From Halocafeteria seosinensis (lineage: Eukaryota): a stretch of DNA of 64,000 bases. Location of the stretch: assembly GCA_001687465.1 (NCBI GenBank), contig LVLI01000079.1:62001-126000 (forward strand), read 5' to 3'. The first letter of the stretch is position 1, and every line of letters begins with the position of its first letter. Shown here piece by piece: positions 11,957 to 55,394 of the stretch. The translations under genes and the position numbers were made by a program. Below the pieces are notes generated by a model. It did not search any database. It was given only the letters and a program-made list of their open reading frames with translations, and had not been told where the DNA came from.

Positions 11957-14266
11957 TTACTTCGAAAGCGATTTTTTGGGATTTGGAATTTTGTTGTTGA
12001 AAAAGGGGTTACCGCCTTTACCGGAACCGCCATTCTCTGCTGGTTTGCCTTTCGAACTCTTGCTACTCTTAGATCCTTTGACCAGTTCATTCATGCCAGC
12101 TTGCGCAGAGTCATTGCTATCACTGCTACTTGAGGATGCTTCACTGTCCGATCCTTCTGATTCTTCTTCCTCTTTCCCTGAAGAGGCATGCGCACCTGCA
12201 CGGGACTTCTCAGTCTTGTCCTCCCCCCCTTCGTCCTCCTCTCCCCCTTCGTCTTCGTCCTCCGAACTCGAACTAGAAGTCTCCTCGTTGTCGTTTCCAG
12301 CCTTCCTCTTGTACTCTCGCAACTGCTTTCGGTGGTCAGCGCTTTCTTCTTCTGTCTTAGACTTCACTGCGGATTGTTCTTCGGCTTCAGACTCCGACCC
12401 CGACTCTGTTTGGACAGAGCCGTCACTGTCGTCATCATTTGCTTGCTCCGTCTCGCGGCCTGGGTTGCCCTTTTCTGATGCAGGAATCTTTTTGCTTTGG
12501 CCATGTGCGGTCGCAGTCGACACTTGCTCTGCACTCTTAACCGTGCCGGTGCTTGAACTTGCCATACTCTTGGTGTTTGTATGACCGATCGAAGAATCCG
12601 CGGGACGCTTCTGAGCACGCTGGGCCTGAGTTCCGGAGACGGCTACGCCGTTGGGGCGAGACACTTCAGGGGCCGCCCGAGAAGTACGATGTGTTGCTTC
12701 TGTTTGGGTTTCTCCCACTCCATGGGTTGTCGATTCCTCTTTGGAAATGAACTTCGCATGGGGGAAGTTGCTGTGAAGCTCGGTGTAGACATCTTTCAAC
12801 GACACATTGCAAGCCTTCAGAGAGATGAAGGTACCGACGTAAAACCGGTAGGCCTTTGGATGTTCCGTGCTACCACTTGGTGGATATACACGAACAGTAA
12901 AACTCGCGTTAAGGCACTCCTCCGACGTCCGCGAAAGATGCTCTTCAGTCTCGACAACAACATTTTCCCGACTGTCGGGCTGCAAGTGTTTCTGTTCTTC
13001 TCCACACCAAGGATAGACCGACGTTTCGTCAAATGACACTCTTCGTTTTCGCGGCTTCGATTCTTTACTTGTTGTGGCCAAAGAGCCTGCTTTGTCCGTT
13101 TCCGTCGCCGAAGAGGACGGGTGTGTGTGTTGTACTGTTGATGCAGACTTTGCTTGCGGTATTTCTGTGGTAGATGTACTCGGCGCACTAGCCGATGCCT
13201 CGTTTGGGATAGCAGCGGCTTTGGGTTTTCCCTTCGAGGTCTTTTCTTTTAATGACGATGCCAATTGCTCTTTAAGTTTTCTATGACGAATATAGTTGCC
13301 AAAGAACGTTTGTTTCCTCTCACTATTGACATATTGCTGCATCTTTTTCGATAAGTTGGTTGGAGTTGCCTCAATTTCACCTTGAGCCACCTTGTCGATA
13401 AATTCCTTTGCCAGCTCCTCCTCCTTAGGTGTCAACTTCCCCGAAGAGCGAGACTCCGGCATTGGGTTCTTCTTGCTCACAAGGTGATCACCCAGTACCT
13501 CTTTGAGATTATGTTTCTTAATGTACGTCGAAAATACTCTGTTTTCGGAGCGATTAGGATTAACGTAATGCTTCATTTCATTCGGTAGAGCAGTGGCTTT
13601 TACCCGAACATTCCCTTCAAGCACGTCTTTCTTAAACTTCTCAATACCTTCCAGCTCTTTGGCAGTAAGCTTGCCAGAAGCGGGAAAATCAACCGTTTCC
13701 CCAAGAGTTTCATTCTCCGTAGAAGCCGCAGCATTCGAAGCTTCCGCAGTGTTCGCTTCCTTGTTGCTGTGGTCGTGGTCAACGGCTGAATCCTGAGACT
13801 GTGAGAAGGGGGTAGTTCGATCCTTCAAATCCGTCGTTTTGAGGAACTCATGGAACGTCTTCTTGGACTTGTCCGGATTCACGTATTTCCTCATTTTCGA
13901 ACTCAAGTGGGAAGTCTCGATTTCACCGGACCGCACTTTCTGCATGAACTCTTGGATTTTCGTTTGCTCTTCCGCCGTGAACCCTTCCATATTTCCTTTG
14001 AATTTCCCTTGGGGTGTGGACGGATGGTCTGAGGACCCCTTGGTAGCTGTGCTGGGGTCAGTGTTACTCATCGAGGTGTCCTCTTGCCCGGCGGCGGTTG
14101 GCTCGCTTCCTTTGCTCGCTTTCTTGTGCTTCTTTTTCGTATGCTGCACTACCGCAGTGTCAGCACCACCAGAGCCTGTTGCACTACTCGAAGCTGCGAC
14201 GCTGCTTTCTTGTGGTTTGCTCTTACTACGCTTCTGAGCCTTGGAACTGGAGTTGGAGTCTGCCAT
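11957..14266 (-). CDS. Lys/Ser/Glu-rich, probably nuclear or nucleolar protein with three ~50-aa internal repeats
   Basis: 780-aa uninterrupted ORF; basic clusters (KKKHKK, KPRKRR) and an acidic Ser-rich tail. Start is 14266 or 14299. Confidence 0.8.
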   Translation of the reverse strand: MADSNSSSKAQKRSKSKPQESSVAASSSATGSGGADTAVVQHTKKKHKKASKGSEPTAAGQEDTSMSNTDPSTATKGSSDHPSTPQGKFKGNMEGFTAEEQTKIQEFMQKVRSGEIETSHLSSKMRKYVNPDKSKKTFHEFLKTTDLKDRTTPFSQSQDSAVDHDHSNKEANTAEASNAAASTENETLGETVDFPASGKLTAKELEGIEKFKKDVLEGNVRVKATALPNEMKHYVNPNRSENRVFSTYIKKHNLKEVLGDHLVSKKNPMPESRSSGKLTPKEEELAKEFIDKVAQGEIEATPTNLSKKMQQYVNSERKQTFFGNYIRHRKLKEQLASSLKEKTSKGKPKAAAIPNEASASAPSTSTTEIPQAKSASTVQHTHPSSSATETDKAGSLATTSKESKPRKRRVSFDETSVYPWCGEEQKHLQPDSRENVVVETEEHLSRTSEECLNASFTVRVYPPSGSTEHPKAYRFYVGTFISLKACNVSLKDVYTELHSNFPHAKFISKEESTTHGVGETQTEATHRTSRAAPEVSRPNGVAVSGTQAQRAQKRPADSSIGHTNTKSMASSSTGTVKSAEQVSTATAHGQSKKIPASEKGNPGRETEQANDDDSDGSVQTESGSESEAEEQSAVKSKTEEESADHRKQLREYKRKAGNDNEETSSSSSEDEDEGGEEDEGGEDKTEKSRAGAHASSGKEEEESEGSDSEASSSSSDSNDSAQAGMNELVKGSKSSKSSKGKPAENGGSGKGGNPFFNNKIPNPKKSLSK

Positions 14267-39582: not shown

Positions 39583-42500
39583 ATGCAGGGCACTAACGAG
39601 AGTGAGGATGACGATTGGGGTGATTTCTCCCTGTCCATGAGCGATACAGAGGAAGAGAATGAAGTGAATATAGCTCAAAGTGGTCATGGAATGTCCCCAC
39701 CAGCTACATCTAGCAGTAAGGAAGAGGAGTATGACCAGGAGAATCAGCGTCTTATGTCGCATGACCAAGATGACGAGGCATCGACAGCCATTGCAGAGGA
39801 GCGAAAAAGTTCGTCTTTGATGATTTTCGCAGTCGGGTTGTTCGTGGCGTTGCTGTTTTCGCTGGTACTTGGAGTGCTCTTCGGACACTCCCACGTTAAG
39901 AATTGGGTGAAGCCCTCGCACTCAGGGAATGCTGGACACAAACAGGAAGAGTTGACCCTGGTGGCCTGGTGTCACCCCAAGAAGGCTGAATTTCCAGTTT
40001 TTGCTCTTCGAAGAGCCCCGTCATTGAGTGACTTTGCGTCGGACGAGTTACTGCAAGCCATTGGGTTGGACGGCGCAAGAGGACAGTTTAAAGTTGTGGC
40101 ATACGAAAAGAGCGAGAGTCCCACTCGAAGATATCCCACAAAAATACAGGGAGTTAACAAGTCGGCGGACTGGAGGTTTGATAGGCTTAGTGACGACACA
40201 GGATACACACCGTCACCACACCACCATAGCATTCCGTGGCCAATGCCGATTGCCGTAAATTTCTCGCAGTGGACCACCTCTTTCTGCGAATCGACTTCTT
40301 GCAAGTTGGAGTCTAAGCGATTTTACGCCGACAACTTTTCTGTGAAGATTCCCCGGAAACAATATGAAGACTTGCATCAGACTGAAAGAAACATGGTGAA
40401 GTACATTGGTGGTAATATCTGTGGCGGCATCACCACTCCGAATGTGCAGTTGGTCGACCACAGCCAGCTCAACTTTCGAGAAGAGACGGATAGGCTCCTA
40501 TGTCGTCCAGCATCTGCGGTTCTACAGCTGGAAGCACTGGAGAGAGGAAGCTATGATTCGGCATTTTCTGGACCGTGTCACTTGTCTATCATGAATCCGA
40601 TAGGCAGTGTGGTTATAATGACAGATAAACTACAGGTGGATCCTGCACCAAGCCATATTCGGACTAGAGCAGAGAACGCTGCTGAGTTGGATATCGCCAC
40701 TGCACATAATGCTGTCAGGTCCTATATGAAACTAAAGAACAGCACGACAACTTGGACAGGAGGTAGTATTTGGCAACCGACAGAACCGCGTTGGCAGTGG
40801 CCGTATGAATCCACATTCCGTTTAAACTCTGCTGCACTCGTTGTCCCGGAATTGGGAATGGACGAGGAGTACTCATTAGAATTGTCTCATTCTCATGAAC
40901 AAGCAAGTGGTGATCCTTCCGTAATGCGCATCAATGCGGCCTCCATTTGGGGCCTTACAAGAGCATCATCCTCTATGAGGCAACTGTACCGGAACACTGA
41001 TGCGCTCATCGATTTTCCGGAGATAAGCGTGGTCGACTCACCCAGGTTTCCTTGGAGAGGAGTCAGTGTTGATACCGCACGACACTTTTTACCCGTACCG
41101 AAGCTGAAAGCCTTGATAGATTCTATGGCTATGAGCAAATTCAACACCCTCCACTGGCACTTAGTAGATTCCCAGTCATTCCCGCTGTTAGTTAGGTTGA
41201 CGCTGAATGTGACCGTCAAAGAATATGCCAATTTTTTCAACTGGGCGAGAGGATATATCTCACAACTTTACTCAGGAGAGAAGTGCCCGGCACAAACCTA
41301 CTCGATTCCAGCATCCAGCTTCGTGGATAGCCCACACCCTTTAGAAACAAATTTAACGCTTCAGGGCAACTTTACGGCTCCGTGGAGTCGGTCAAAAGTA
41401 TATAGTGAATCTTCTATCAATTATCTTGTTCGGTATGGCGCACTCCGCGGAATTCGTATCGTCCCAGAAATGGATGTCCCCAGTCACGCTGGAGGCTGGG
41501 GTTGCGCGTTCGCTAGATGGGCTCTTGAAGGCGTCTTGAACAGGGAACAGGAGCGAAACCCAAATGGATTTCCTTCGCTTTCCAACGGCAAATCCATAGA
41601 CGATGTATTACGCCAATTTGATGGAGTTCCATGTCCATATCGTTGCAATGGTCCTACGTTGTCCATAGTGTCCCCTTGCCACGGAACTGTCCGAAGCGAC
41701 GATTCTCTCCTGCATGGCATGAACAAATACGCCCTCGACCCTTCTCTTCGCATAACGTATGATGTTGTTCAGAAAATATTGGGCCGCGTGCAGGACCTAT
41801 TCCCGGACAAATGGATGCATTTGGGTGGGGATGAAGTTGCTCCAGAGTGTTGGGGCGGCGTTGATCATATCCACCAATGGGCACTACGCAAAAGGTTAGT
41901 CAATTATGATTCACTATAGAAGTCTGTTCTTACACCTTAATTATTGGTTTGCAGAGATACGACATCGCTACGATTTTTATGGAATTTTTTCACCAAGAGC
42001 ATCCTTAGCCATATCAGGAAGAATGCTATAGTTTGGCAGGATGCGTATGACGAATTGGGTGAACCTATTCAAAATCCACCCAAAGGTTTAGGGAAAACAG
42101 TTGCAGTCCAAACATGGAAATGTTGGGCCGGAATGGATACCAATGCGGCAATGAAAGCGGCCTCAAATTGGGAATCATCTAGAAGAGGAGTCATTCGCTC
42201 ATCGTGCTGGTACCTTGACTGGGAAACGAGCTGGCATCAAGTGTACAAGGATGATCCGTGGCCCCACTTTTCTGGGAGGATGCTTGAAGCGCCCCTCCTT
42301 GTTAATTCCCCTGCAGTATGGGGCGGAGAGGCAGCTATTTGGACTGAGCATATTGACTCTACTAACGTAGGATGTAAATCATTCCCACGATCAGCTGCTG
42401 TCGGAGAGCGTCTTTGGTCCTCTAGGCTACGGGTGACCACCAACGATACTTTACGTACGTGTGATGATGGCGTTTGCACATCCCGTGTCGAAGTATTGCG

Positions 42501-43860
42501 CGAGAGAGCAACAATGCAAAACAATATTTCTTATACTTTGGGTAGACTGTCGGTTTTCCGAGATCGTATCGATCGTGAGACAGAGTTGCGTCCATCTCGT
42601 ATGGTGCCTGCAAACGATAAGCACCACTCGAAGACATGCACAAAAGCAATATCGCAAGGCGTTCAGTGGGCACTACGGCCGCAGGATGTTCTCAACTATA
42701 CGTCGCTGTCAGAGAAGTTTCATTCACTCCCGTATGAGTATTACAGTCCGTCGTTCTCAGAGGGATTGCGGTCGTTTCACACCGTCATATCGTTCAACGT
42801 CGCAGACGGTGGACAAACCAAATTTCCTGCTCAAGTACTTGAACTGGGTAACGAATGTCAGGTTCCCGAAGGTAAAAGGATTATAAAGCCAAGACTCTGT
42901 GAGATCCTGTTATGGCTTAGACAACGGGAAGCCGATGTGGCAGCGCTCGTAGAGCTGAACAACTGGGACCAGGGCGAGGAAGATGTACCAGAAAAAGTCT
43001 TAGTCACGAAATACATGCAGGAAAATGCAGCGTTCGCCGGCTATGCACATTCCGTTCTTCTTCGTGCCAACGAAGGATACCATATGGGGGTTATGTCCAG
43101 ACAACCGATTCAGGTTTTATTTTACGATACCACCAATTTCGAACGAGGAGCACTGGTAGTAGAAATCGACAATATTGTGTATGTGGTTGCTCACCTCCAT
43201 GCCCACAGTTCCCAAGCCCGTCTAGAAGAATGCCGCGTGCTTGCAAAGGTGGTAACGGATATTTCGGCTTCAGGAAAGCCAATTCTAATGCTTGGGGACA
43301 TGAATACGCTCTCACCGAACGACCAAGCCTGGCATCAGCAAGCAGAAATATTGCCTTGGTTGAGGAAGAAGGCACCACGCCGGTTCTCTAAGAAACATGG
43401 TTACATACTTCAGTCTGGACTTGGCCTTCCCGAGGGCTGGAGTAAAGCCGTCTCCACCGACGATATTCCCGATATCTCTATCAATCATGACTCTGCGGAA
43501 AACGAGTTGAATAACGCTATAGCTAATCGCACCCTACTCGACTATCGCCCAATGCACGTACTTTTGGATTGTGGACTACAAGATCTATGCTCTTTGAAGA
43601 AATGGCCCGAAGAGTCCGCAGAAAGGGATATGGAGAAAAAAGCGCCGTCTCCATGTGACTATACAGAGCCAACGGATTACTCCTTGGTGGAGACAATCGA
43701 TGCAAGTGCTGTACCGCCTTTCCGCTTAGACTATGGCCTGGCGAACAATCCGCTGTTGGCGAAGTTTCCAGGTGCTGCATGCACGGTCGTACAAACGAGG
43801 AAGACAGCCCAACTATCTGATCATTACCCAATTGAATGCCGATGGAGGTACTTTGATTGA
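39583..43860 (+). CDS. Type II membrane GH20 beta-N-acetylhexosaminidase fused to a C-terminal EEP-family domain
   Basis: GH20: DSPRFPWRGVSVDTARHF, HWHLVDSQSFP, PEMDVPSHA, HLGGDEV, WYLD, GGEAAIWTE. EEP: ISFNV, LVE, AHL, GDMN, RLDY, SDHYPI. A 60-nt intron at 41895-41954 joins the two ORFs in frame. Confidence 0.9.
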
Positions 43861-51964: not shown

Positions 51965-53275
51965 TCACACGTCGAAAATTGGTTCAATGAATTCCGTAAA
52001 TAATTTCGAGTAACAGAGAAGGAAATGGATCATGAGTACAATCTCTTCGGCAGAAATCAGTGTTGCAGTTAGATGACTCACGACGGTGCAGATTGCTAGA
52101 AGAAACGGTCCCCAAACGTAGCTGATCTTCACGGCCTTGCCGATTTCGTCATGGATTGCGTCAGGGTCGTCTCTTCGGTTTCGAATTTCCACTCGGCGAA
52201 ACTGGAAGTCCTGCTCTATGTACTGCTGGCTCATTTTCGGATTTAGTACCAACATGTAGAGGTGTGGCAAAGTGAAGGACACAACTACCGCAAACAATTC
52301 GTATATGAACATTGTGTTGGCAATTGAGCCGAACCAAGGACTGAACGCACCAATCTTGGGGAGTTGAAGAATAACGTAGAGGGTTAAGATAATCGGAAAC
52401 GGGAGCATGTGATCGAAAATGGCGATAGTAACTGGTTCGAACTTCCTGCGGTGGCGGACATACACTTCAGTTACCTTCTGAACGTACCGAGTCCAGAGTA
52501 CGCATGCTACGAGAAGGACAGTGAAAATGATTGATAAAAAGACCTTTCCCATTAAAAGCGAACTTTCCAAAACATCTGTACGAAAATGCTGAGCAGCACC
52601 GGACAATCTCTCACCGAGCCTCCAAAACAATTTGCAAATAATTAGCATCACAATAAACGTGCGGGCAGCTGACCCATACATAAAGACTCCAGCTACTCGC
52701 ATAGTTTCCTCTAGCATAAAAAAAATTAAAGTTGTCCCGACTGTTTGGAGCAATACGATTGCGTAACCGAGTAAGTAGGGATAATCCTGTAAATATGCAA
52801 CTCCTGTAACTGGCAATACTTCTATGACTCTGGTAAAGATGGCTGCCACAGTTGTCACTGCAGCGAGTACGATACCGGCTAATTTCACCAGAGTATCGTT
52901 GAATAGACGATTGTGATTCCTTTCGGCCTGAGTCATTCTTCTAGTATCTTTCCTTATCAAAGGCACTTCAAAGTATTCACCCAGCACGGGTACAAGAATT
53001 TGAGCTGTGACCAATGCAAACAACGCCACACAAGCTGGTGAGCCATAGGGGAATAAAGCGATCGGTGGTAGATCCTTCACTGCCTTAGCTGCTTCAGCTT
53101 GACCTGCCATGGGGATAAAGCAGAAGGAGAGCATCAAAATCAGAATAATGACCGTATGCCATATTCGTCGTGATGTGATGGCTCGAGTACCTTCATGGCC
53201 TTCTGTTCGACATCGGGGTAGAAAGTGCTGAGCCACCCGCGCGATGGGAAACACCCACTTGCCTGAGGTCATCAT
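51965..53275 (-). CDS. Highly divergent Sec61alpha/SecY-family paralogue, intronless
   Basis: About 10 TM segments, collinear with Sec61alpha: IWHT..CFIPMAG (VLWT..CQIPLFG), RLFN..VKLAG (ALFNGAQKLFG), LQ..LEE..YGSA..FI (IQ..LDE..LGSGISLFI), IAIF..FPIIL (IKLF..IPIIL), AIHDEI (SMVHEL), ISAEEIVL..Y..F (GSGTGILL..YFEIF). Confidence 0.8.
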   Translation of the reverse strand: MMTSGKWVFPIARVAQHFLPRCRTEGHEGTRAITSRRIWHTVIILILMLSFCFIPMAGQAEAAKAVKDLPPIALFPYGSPACVALFALVTAQILVPVLGEYFEVPLIRKDTRRMTQAERNHNRLFNDTLVKLAGIVLAAVTTVAAIFTRVIEVLPVTGVAYLQDYPYLLGYAIVLLQTVGTTLIFFMLEETMRVAGVFMYGSAARTFIVMLIICKLFWRLGERLSGAAQHFRTDVLESSLLMGKVFLSIIFTVLLVACVLWTRYVQKVTEVYVRHRRKFEPVTIAIFDHMLPFPIILTLYVILQLPKIGAFSPWFGSIANTMFIYELFAVVVSFTLPHLYMLVLNPKMSQQYIEQDFQFRRVEIRNRRDDPDAIHDEIGKAVKISYVWGPFLLAICTVVSHLTATLISAEEIVLMIHFLLCYSKLFTEFIEPIFDV

Positions 53276-53517
53276 TCATGGATATCTTACCACGTATGTC
53301 CCAATCCATCAATCAATCCGTCCAACTCGGCTTTCTAGCCAGTACCGTAGCCGGTCCGTAGGTATAGGATTAACTGTACACCTTCACAAACACTTCAAGT
53401 ACAGAGCCCAAGCACGAACGGTGTCAAATGCTCTAGGTTTGTCTCGGGATGACTGTTCACTTTCAGAAGTAGTTCTTGAACCGTGGAAGACTTCACTGGA
53501 AGTGGGGATCGTGTAAC

Positions 53518-55394
53518 ATGATGTCCGGGGTCAGCAGGAGAACGGATGGCCGACATAAAAAGGGCCGTAACTTTATCCCCAGTCAAGGGCCATCCAAACT
53601 GAAATGTGCTGGTTATTTTATAGCGTTTCTGATGGCAGTAATGGCTGTGTCCTCGATTGTGAGGATGCTCAAAGGTCAAACGAAGACCAGCATATATGAC
53701 GACGATGATACACAGGGAGGGGCAGAATCACGGACACGAGAAATGATGCGTGGACATAGACAGCAACAGAAGCAGGATTGCAACTGTGAAAAGTCTACGG
53801 TAAACACGAATAGTAGAGTAGAGAGCGAGAGGAAGGGCGAGAAAGGTGGTGGGGAGGATGCAGACAAAGGGGAATGGCAAACGCCCCAAATTGAAATGGA
53901 ATCACATTACAAACGAGGTATGACAGGTAGTAGAGTTACGTACGTCTTTTTTTTAAATTTGCTACCACGAAGTGTGTCCTTCACTGCAGTTTTCGGGGTG
54001 GAACCCTTCGATGAAACTCACCGAAAGCACTGGGAGTTACACAATATCCCGACAGATCACTGGTATCAAAAGGCTAGAGAAGACGTAGATAAATGTGATT
54101 TGCGAATTCCGGACCCAGACCATGCGGCGTACACTGATGAAACAACAGTCGTCACAGCACTGCTAGATCTGAAGCGAGGTGAGAAAGGGAACGGAATGTT
54201 CCAACGCAGCATGAAAGAATACTTTCAGCGGTTAGACCGCATTCTCGCAAACAAATGGCCCGTTGTAAGTTTCGTTGCGGAAACAATATCTGTTGGTGCA
54301 TCTTTTCACTGTTCCGCAATGTTTGTCAACCAGGTAGTATTTATCCCTGAAGACTTTGCCCAGGAAATCCATCCACACAACGATCGAACTCATATAATCC
54401 CGTTCGATATGGAGAAACTCAAGAAATTCTTCCCCTATTGGGACCGAGTGGAGCAAATCCGTTTGTCGTCACTGTGGCAGGCACAAGCCAAGGCAATTGG
54501 TATGTATCATATCACTGGTTGTGGGATTTAGCTTTTATCGTGATTTCTGCATTTCTCTTCAGGGTGGTTGTATGATTCCCCTCAATCGAGGTTGCAAGGG
54601 TACAATCCGTTGGTAATGTCGAAAATCCTGTTCCTCCGCGAGGGTGCTCGCTTGAATCCCTTCAAGACTAAGAACTTTATGTTTTTAGACGCTGGACACA
54701 TGTGTGCCACGGAAATCAAGCCCGGTGAAATACCGACTTACGAGGAGCACTTTGATAAGGTTAGTGAAGAGGGATTAGCACGAAGGATCCACCGTAGTAT
54801 TTCATTTCTGTTTCTGTGATGGCAGTTCATGGTGACACATTGGCCCTATGGGACTACTACGGAGGTGCATGGCTTTACAGATAAGGCCATGCATATGTAC
54901 ATGAACACGAAGTCTGACCCGCTTCAGATAGTGCGAGGAGGGTAAGTTTCGTGTGGAAGACTTTGTGAGCCTACGGTCGAAGCAGCTAACCAATTCTTGG
55001 CTGCAGAATCTTTGGAGGGCAAAAGCCATACATTGAATGTGTAACGAAGGTTTATCTAAGAATACTGGCTCAAACGCTTCAAGATGGCTACATGGGAACC
55101 GAAGAAAACATCTTCGCAATCGCAATGAAGAGGTATGTCCGTGGAGGAAGTCATGTTTCCAAAAGCCAGAGATTATACGTTTCTCTCTTGTTCCTGGTTA
55201 TTTTCAGATTCCCAGAATTGTTTCATGGCTATGATAATAATCAGCGAGGTAATCACGGCGACAATTGTGCCTCGTTTGCTGACAATCTCGAGCGAGTCAG
55301 AGACGCCAAACGAAAGGGTGGTTGGGAACCTAAGCCGTGGATCGACAAGTACGAGACTGGAAAATATAAACCGGGTGATCAAGTCAAGCCTTAG
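53518..55394 (+). CDS. Type II membrane HtrL/YibB-like putative glycosyltransferase
   Basis: Single N-terminal TM and stem; TTVVTALLDLKRG..RSMKEYF, YNPLVMSK..A..NPF.T..F.FLDAG, MGTEENIF. Confidence 0.65.

Follow-up and report, generated by a model that had tools for sequence, protein, structure and literature searches.

P0001, a gene of Halocafeteria seosinensis, encodes what is by profile comparison a Sec61α homologue with ten predicted TM segments, and it belongs to a real, maintained family that is a variant of the second-translocon theme, unusual in the depth of its divergence and in which parts of the channel survive. Halocafeteria is a halophilic bicosoecid stramenopile, and few eukaryotic proteins vary as little as Sec61α. 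A specialised translocon or insertase role is a fair inference for P0001; that P0001 acts beside a near-canonical copy as an auxiliary translocon of the ER, inserting hydrophobic segments of membrane proteins cotranslationally, is a reading to which an even chance is given on the basis of sequence. The gene lies in a window of 64,000 nucleotides (the whole stretch of DNA that was analysed; contig LVLI01000079.1, positions 62,001 to 126,000), and the coordinates in Table 1 count from the first letter of this window. The earlier note on this DNA had described an intact, intronless reading frame collinear with Sec61α, and it was right on both counts: no stop interrupts the frame, the contigs of the three spliced-type runs described below show no splice joint within it, and the family profile matches Sec61α nearly end to end.

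Table 1. Features of P0001 and its surroundings, in positions of the window.
Feature	Position	Strand	Remark
Divergent Sec61α paralogue P0001	51965..53275	(-)	Intronless ORF, 436 aa, stop-free
Upstream stretch, possible 5' leader	53276..53318	(-)	Inside spliced-type contigs
Luminal loop 1/plug region, aa 54-79	53039..53116	(-)	Sequence replaced; pLDDT <50 at 58-78
TM2, lateral gate, aa 80-101	52973..53038	(-)	19/22 identical to P0004
Run of eight T (coding strand)	52718..52725	(-)	One base longer in the transcript-derived EukProt record
TM5, aa 203-221	52613..52669	(-)	I179 -> A204, S180 -> R205, I183 kept as I208
Luminal loop 5, aa 222-243	52547..52612	(-)	Some 20 residues fewer than canonical
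Cytosolic loop 6, aa 265-290	52406..52483	(-)	Canonical length, predicted beta-hairpin
Codon of R277 (loop 6)	52445-52447	(-)	Animal R273, yeast R275
Luminal loop 7 remnant, aa 309-321	52313..52351	(-)	Some 40 residues fewer than canonical
Cytosolic loop 8, aa 345-388	52112..52243	(-)	34/44 identical to P0004 (53%-identical relative)
Codon of R368 (loop 8)	52172-52174	(-)	Animal R405, yeast R406
TM10, aa 409-430	51986..52051	(-)	L449 kept as L414; T445, G446 -> E410, E411

The window consists of eukaryotic DNA dense in genes, with a GC content of 43-51% and short GT..AG introns of 62-75 bases. P0001 is flanked tail-to-tail by an RNase HII-family gene, as assigned by Pfam, and head-to-head by a gene without family assignment. 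P0001 is possibly a retrocopy, being intronless, but several other long ORFs of the window are intronless too. Two further loci of the window were recorded in passing. An ORF of 769 aa at 11957-14266 (-) has no Pfam match and by eye contains three units of about 55 residues (aa ~95-150, 195-255 and 275-330) set among acidic and basic low-complexity stretches. At 39583-43860 (+), a GH20 hexosaminidase domain extends across two ORFs, the second of which runs in frame into an endonuclease/exonuclease/phosphatase domain; should the two ORFs be exons of a single gene, this may be an unusual fusion.

The relationship of P0001 to Sec61α exceeds chance through its relatives only, as the single sequence has neither a Pfam match at E<=0.1 nor a Sec match in the PDB (one unrelated match, E 0.8). 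A profile of five family sequences matched 17 PDB chains, comprising 16 eukaryotic Sec61α and one archaeal SecY (5.6e-10), with no bacterial SecY among the 17; eukaryotic Sec61α ranked first, the best match having an E of 1.1e-17 over profile positions 36-412 of 442. The relative P0006 gave 16 PDB matches by itself, all Sec61α (best E 3.9e-17), and is the one relative of five with a Pfam SecY match, scoring 24.2 bits where the cut-off is 32.2. The search with a SecY profile suggested by the earlier note finds nothing in Pfam for P0001 alone. Comparison of the family with 19 canonical sequences by hhalign yielded 98.2% over 393 columns, and the profile scores favour eukaryotic Sec61α over archaeal SecY as the kin of P0001. 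The top match of both the family-profile and the P0006 searches is chain U6 of PDB 7w5z, named Sec61 alpha; this entry is presumably a ciliate mitochondrial complex IV, for which such a chain name would be odd.

Identity of P0001 to 35 canonical Sec61α sequences, a set that leaves out the moderately divergent eukaryotic rows L121 and L188, is 14.6-19.8%, and that of the family to canonical rows is 15-24%. P0001 keeps 39 of the 187 canonical-conserved columns (21%) while four archaeal SecY keep 56-66%; one Asgard SecY is 38.8-46.4% identical to canonical Sec61α, with 120 of the 187 columns kept. The three motif replacements noticed at the outset (among them GSGISLFI to GSAARTFI and GSGTGILL to ISAEEIVL) are reproduced, as MAFFT, HMMER and hhalign give the same correspondences. 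L121:57-1511 (-) and L188:110-1528 (-) are themselves eukaryotic Sec61α with mean identities of 48% and 52% to canonical sequences; they group together and are possibly other second copies in unidentified protists.

A structural model built from a 26-row alignment reached a pLDDT of 77 and superposes on Sec61 (TM 0.62-0.64, Z 22.7, rmsd 4.8 over 369 residues); as 21 of the 26 input rows were other Sec61α, it indicates compatibility with the SecY fold and is not independent evidence. The single-sequence AlphaFold model was too poor (pLDDT 48): Foldseek returned 0 matches at E<=0.001, and a wide VIA search with it returned helical bundles alone. Neighbours in the ESM Atlas are SecY clusters at 0.86-0.88, below the 0.9 line and with a recognition value under its threshold; the three best are bacterial SecY at 0.87-0.88, and all serve as a lead only.

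Relatives were sought by a word-index search, which gave 3 proteins among 7999 scored, and by an exhaustive search, which gave 5 among 1.84 billion representatives. P0002 and P0005 are halves of P0001's own protein, from a transcript-derived EukProt record; the others are P0003 (79% identity to P0001, partial; JGI), P0004 (53%; Logan/ENA), P0006 (28%; ENA) and P0007 (26%; NCBI). The relatives of P0001 are called as single ORFs. Profile word-search found no further members, and none of 417 candidates from a metagenome scan with family patterns was confirmed. The composition of P0006 (GARP 0.37) is that of high-GC genomes, and the P0006 cluster includes a fragment labelled Symbiodinium sp. KB8, an assembly which we take to carry bicosoecid-like sequence; if the Symbiodinium label is right, the family would span stramenopiles and alveolates and be older.

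As the relatives at 79%, 53%, 28% and 26% have many derived residues in common, the family is maintained and not decaying. In the four full-length family rows, 29 columns are invariant yet unlike the canonical majority, and 12 are shared with that majority; the 29, some of which are alignment-dependent, look like new constraint more than lost constraint. Conservation between close relatives is also patterned by topology. P0001 and P0004 are identical at 68 of 108 cytosolic-loop positions but at only 27 of 85 luminal-loop positions (Fisher p 2e-5); for P0001 and P0003 the counts are 75 of 82 and 21 of 40, respectively (p 2e-6). The differences are not significant for P0006 (28/104 cytosolic, 11/63 luminal; p 0.19) or P0007 (25/104 and 7/47; p 0.28).

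Four sequencing runs contain the window sequence, namely the DNA run X1 and the spliced-type runs X2-X4, all from one study that is possibly the window's own source. X2-X4 are not recorded as RNA, and their RNA nature is deduced from splice joints, 13 of the GT..AG type in neighbouring genes, all of which are absent from X1. Contigs of X2-X4 span the P0001 ORF; in X2 and X4 a single piece covers it and the convergent neighbour together, and in X3 the coverage is divided between two pieces. The spliced-type contigs of P0001 end at 53309-53318, and those of the neighbour on that side begin at 53430-53438. These contigs, which carry no strand, start or level and come from a single study, are moderate evidence that P0001 is transcribed; read-through from the neighbour is possible since the coverage is unstranded and joined to the convergent gene. 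In the head-to-head neighbour, X2 skips 65 bases (GT..AG) at 54940-55006 (+), whereas the gap in X3 and X4 is just 20 bases, at 54979, a difference due to either alternative splicing or a very short intron.

The extra base at the T run splits the protein of the EukProt record into P0005 and P0002. Contigs of all four runs are free of this indel, the frame being open in the DNA run, and P0004, P0006 and P0007 continue through the site in the genomic frame, which is therefore the conserved frame. Contigs of X3 break at 52699-52727, over the T run. The extra base and the contig break likely reflect slippage in the library or the assembly. Programmed frameshifting at this site was set aside, as these three relatives pass it without leaving the genomic frame.

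The same organism likely carries a near-canonical Sec61α as well, judging from a stretch of about 47 codons for which a co-cultured eukaryote is the alternative source. Canonical loci gathered by motif numbered 121 eukaryotic and 120 prokaryotic; the motif occurred in no viral contig, and none of the 121 eukaryotic loci has a DNA match to the window. Among the matches listed for the canonical locus L128 (120 of 7769), none bears the source name of P0005, which is no sign of absence. When the four window-containing runs were compared with the canonical locus L128 at 80% likeness, each of the four yielded one contig matching L128:133-212 (TM9-TM10) over 80 bases at 80% identity. Five of the 16 differences in these 80 bases are listed, and all five are at third codon positions. 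Read by hand, the flank before the match gives P-E-V-K-S-I-T-A-E-L and the flank after it V-G-T-G-T-G-A-L-L-A, 8/10 identical to the canonical TM10 motif. P0001 reads I-S-A-E-E-I-V-L there, so the L128-like stretch belongs to a second gene. The earlier note had taken P0001 for a retained paralogue, not the housekeeping copy, and had proposed looking for the canonical SEC61A elsewhere; this near-canonical stretch in 4/4 runs and the intact relatives at 26-79% bear that reading out.

Evidence on origin comes from insertions and trees. Provided that the near-canonical copy retains the invariant arginine, its loop 8 carries at least the two extra residues that the family has there, which hints weakly at local duplication; the same insertion also occurs in a few unrelated rows. 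In the tree the four full-length family rows form a single clade with an SH-aLRT of 99-100, to which a very long branch leads. Grouping the family with stramenopile-type rows (p 0.64) and grouping it with three Asgard rows (p 0.41) are both compatible with the AU tests. The trees were built without an Ssh1p sequence, and duplication independent of Ssh1p is the default inference.

Several functional parts are retained. Positions are numbered by the animal-type locus L160, which agrees with the human pore ring (I81/V85/I179/I183/I292/L449) given in passages of PMC8147068. By alignment and not by coordinates, the ring maps to P0001 L85/V89/A204/I208/I296/L414; five of six positions are bulky hydrophobic in P0001, and the sixth, the I179 site, is A204 (relatives: A, A, T, A). 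In the lateral gate, TM2 keeps pore-ring residues L85 and V89 while canonical G88 and Q92 become the family-specific Q92 and P96, and TM7 is identical to P0004 at 14 of 18 positions. Loop 6 has exactly the canonical length in all five family rows. R277 and R368 are invariant in the same five, and R368 in all 26 aligned rows. In yeast, Sec61 with R406E no longer co-sediments with ribosomes, cells lacking Ssh1 grow less well when R275 is changed, and mutation of either residue impairs cotranslational import (passages of PMC2171681). Lys and Arg account for 25 of 146 cytosolic residues of P0001 versus 5 of 86 luminal ones, a cytosolic bias that fits normal topology. The N-terminus lines up with the helix that opens Sec61-type proteins and is not extended beyond it.

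Other parts are altered. The plug segment between anchors is 24 residues versus 26-27 in canonical sequences and 18 in P0007, its tryptophan aligns with Asp, and a plug helix at 60-68 is predicted at pLDDT <50 only. Polar plug changes loosen the yeast channel (passages of PMC3518225), and with the plug so altered a simply stricter gate is disfavoured. At the polar cluster of the gate (T86/Q127/N300), P0001 has T/T/Q, P0004 T/L/Q, P0006 A/L/H and P0007 G/F/Q. Of the rewritten plug and gate proposed initially, the plug sequence and the polar cluster are indeed changed, but the pore ring stays largely hydrophobic and both ribosome arginines are untouched. The charges R205, E410 and E411 in TM5 and TM10 occur in no canonical row; they are found together in P0001, P0003 and P0004 only and are absent from P0006 and P0007. 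A buried TM5-TM10 salt bridge of R205 with E410/E411 would be a guess.

The luminal loops after TM5 and TM7 are shortened, as had been claimed. The span W218-T252 across loop 5 has 35 residues versus 55-57 in 21 other Sec61α, and L305-P337 across loop 7 has 33 versus 72-77. Between anchors, loop 7 measures 33, 32, 33, 47 and 48 in the five family rows, and the di-tyrosine (YY) BiP site in this loop is absent from all five. Loop 5, described in literature passages as the TRAP-binding loop in mammals, is cut in four family rows, whereas P0006 has 65 residues there and no shortening; of the two cuts, that of loop 7 alone is thus family-wide. Insertions are present in cytosolic loop 2 (36 versus 26-27) and luminal loop 3 (47 versus 38-39) of P0001, and loop 8 of the family is likewise longer than canonical through an insertion.

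An auxiliary cotranslational translocon is favoured because the docking and sealing parts are kept and the luminal-helper parts are lost, and because of the yeast loop 7 and Q129 mutants. Translating ribosomes would dock on P0001 via loops 6 and 8, together with Sec61β/γ-type partners. P0001 would no longer answer to TRAP or BiP, as the sites of both lie in the lost loops. Transmembrane helices would leave through the lateral gate, and soluble or weak-signal clients may be imported poorly. This bias toward membrane proteins is suggested by yeast mutants that mimic the P0001 changes: deletion of Sec61 loop 7 is viable and blocks post-translational soluble import with cotranslational membrane integration unaffected (passages of PMC3897919), and an aliphatic or aromatic residue at Q129 gives less CPY import, unharmed DPAPB integration and a higher hydrophobicity threshold (passages of PMC3518225). 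The Q129 site (Q127) is L, L and F in P0004, P0006 and P0007, which supports the bias, but T in P0001 itself, which has no bulky hydrophobe there and counts against it. Also against this explanation, the low-confidence loop 1 plug, taken with the loosening effect of polar plug changes in yeast, suggests the opposite of a stricter gate, and the small share of canonical columns kept (39/187) and the TM5/TM10 charges R205, E410 and E411 weigh on the same side. A more radical proposal, for which the odds are poor, is that in a protist lineage a Sec61α duplicate became a ribosome-docking machine with its ribosome face frozen, plug and luminal chaperone interface discarded and the pore re-gated by a buried Arg/Glu pair in TM5 and TM10, serving as a dedicated insertase or ribosome-gated channel and not as a secretory translocon. 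If true, this would be the most divergent Sec61α derivative known in the eukaryotic endomembrane system, and the family would be invisible to standard annotation and possibly unnoticed in more lineages.

P0001 may also no longer translocate at all, instead anchoring ribosomes to a membrane subdomain or serving as a ribosome-gated ion, solute or lipid conduit whose pathway is reshaped by R205, E410 and E411. Such repurposing would explain the 21% of canonical-conserved columns kept against the 56-66% of archaeal SecY, the replaced and poorly predicted plug, the joint occurrence of the charges in P0001, P0003 and P0004, and the strongest constraint falling on the ribosome face; it is nonetheless unlikely, as the pore ring is hydrophobic, TM2 (19/22) and TM7 (14/18) remain close to P0004, and P0006 and P0007 lack the charges. 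Doubtful too is a general back-up translocon like yeast Ssh1p, under relaxed constraint and without special clients. Yeast can dispense with Ssh1p, which works only cotranslationally and has about 30% identity to Sec61p (passages of PMC3618304), and every channel element is still there in outline in P0001, but a divergence far above that of Ssh1p (15-20% identity) and the 29 family-specific invariant columns are poorly accounted for by relaxation. Residence in another membrane, such as a nuclear envelope subdomain, an extrusome or hair-assembly compartment, or a mitochondrial or relic plastid membrane, is highly improbable. The sites for ER-luminal partners are lost and the best protein-language-model neighbours, a lead only, are bacterial SecY (0.87-0.88); against this, the N-terminus has no extension beyond the Sec61-type helix, 0/17 PDB profile matches are bacterial and the ribosome arginines are kept, and the suggestion of another compartment made at the start finds nothing that points there. 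That P0001 is the organism's sole, fast-evolving Sec61α or a decaying pseudogene, as a frameshifted transcript-derived record and unstranded coverage open to read-through from the convergent neighbour might suggest, is largely refuted by the near-canonical gene in the same runs, the frame open in the DNA run, the indel-free contigs of all four runs, the read-through in P0004, P0006 and P0007, and the conservation by topology.

Among known systems, canonical Sec61α (SEC61A1, yeast Sec61p; PF00344 and PF10559) has in common with it the N-terminal helix, ten TM segments, the pore ring, the loop 6 and 8 arginines and the loop 6 length. Unlike canonical Sec61α, P0001 has 15-20% identity, replaced signature motifs and a score below Pfam detection, together with cut loops 5 and 7, no BiP di-tyrosine, loop 2, 3 and 8 insertions and TM5/TM10 charges. 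Yeast Ssh1p, to our knowledge the one well-studied divergent Sec61α paralogue, resembles P0001 in standing beside a canonical copy with its ribosome-binding face kept. The P0001 family is set apart from it by its 15-24% identity to canonical sequences, compared with about 30% between Ssh1p and Sec61p (passages of PMC3618304), and by a different eukaryotic lineage. The engineered yeast sec61-deltaL7 and Q129L/N302L mutants are like the family in the loss of loop 7 and, for three members, in a hydrophobic Q129 site; unlike in these mutants, the family changes are natural and fixed amid wholesale divergence, and the N302 site stays polar (Q or H). Archaeal SecY, plastid SecY and jakobid mitochondrial SecY, the last described as highly divergent in passages of PMC8662606, have the fold predicted for P0001. 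Unlike organellar bacterial-type SecY, P0001 is a nuclear gene without a targeting extension, and its family profile ranks eukaryotic Sec61α first.

No description of such a Sec61α paralogue was found in the full-text literature, and none of the best-ranked papers listed concerns both Halocafeteria and Sec61. No Sec61 or SecY term occurs in the 12 of 19 supplementary files of PMC5447177 that were covered, and the passages available from PMC8662606, PMC9004409 and PMC4588681 contain no mention of such a family. It is apparently undescribed; an annotation is possible in the rest of PMC5447177, in the supplements of PMC4987115 or in bioRxiv 10.64898/2026.06.25.734631. Pfam-based surveys miss paralogues of the P0001 type. 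At 15-24% identity, the family separates what is unchangeable in Sec61α (the two ribosome arginines, the pore ring and the loop 6 length) from what is changeable (the plug sequence and the luminal loops), and it is a natural counterpart of the loop 7 deletion and the gate mutants. With it one can therefore ask whether a translocon may become specialised for inserting membrane proteins through changes in its own sequence instead of through accessory factors.
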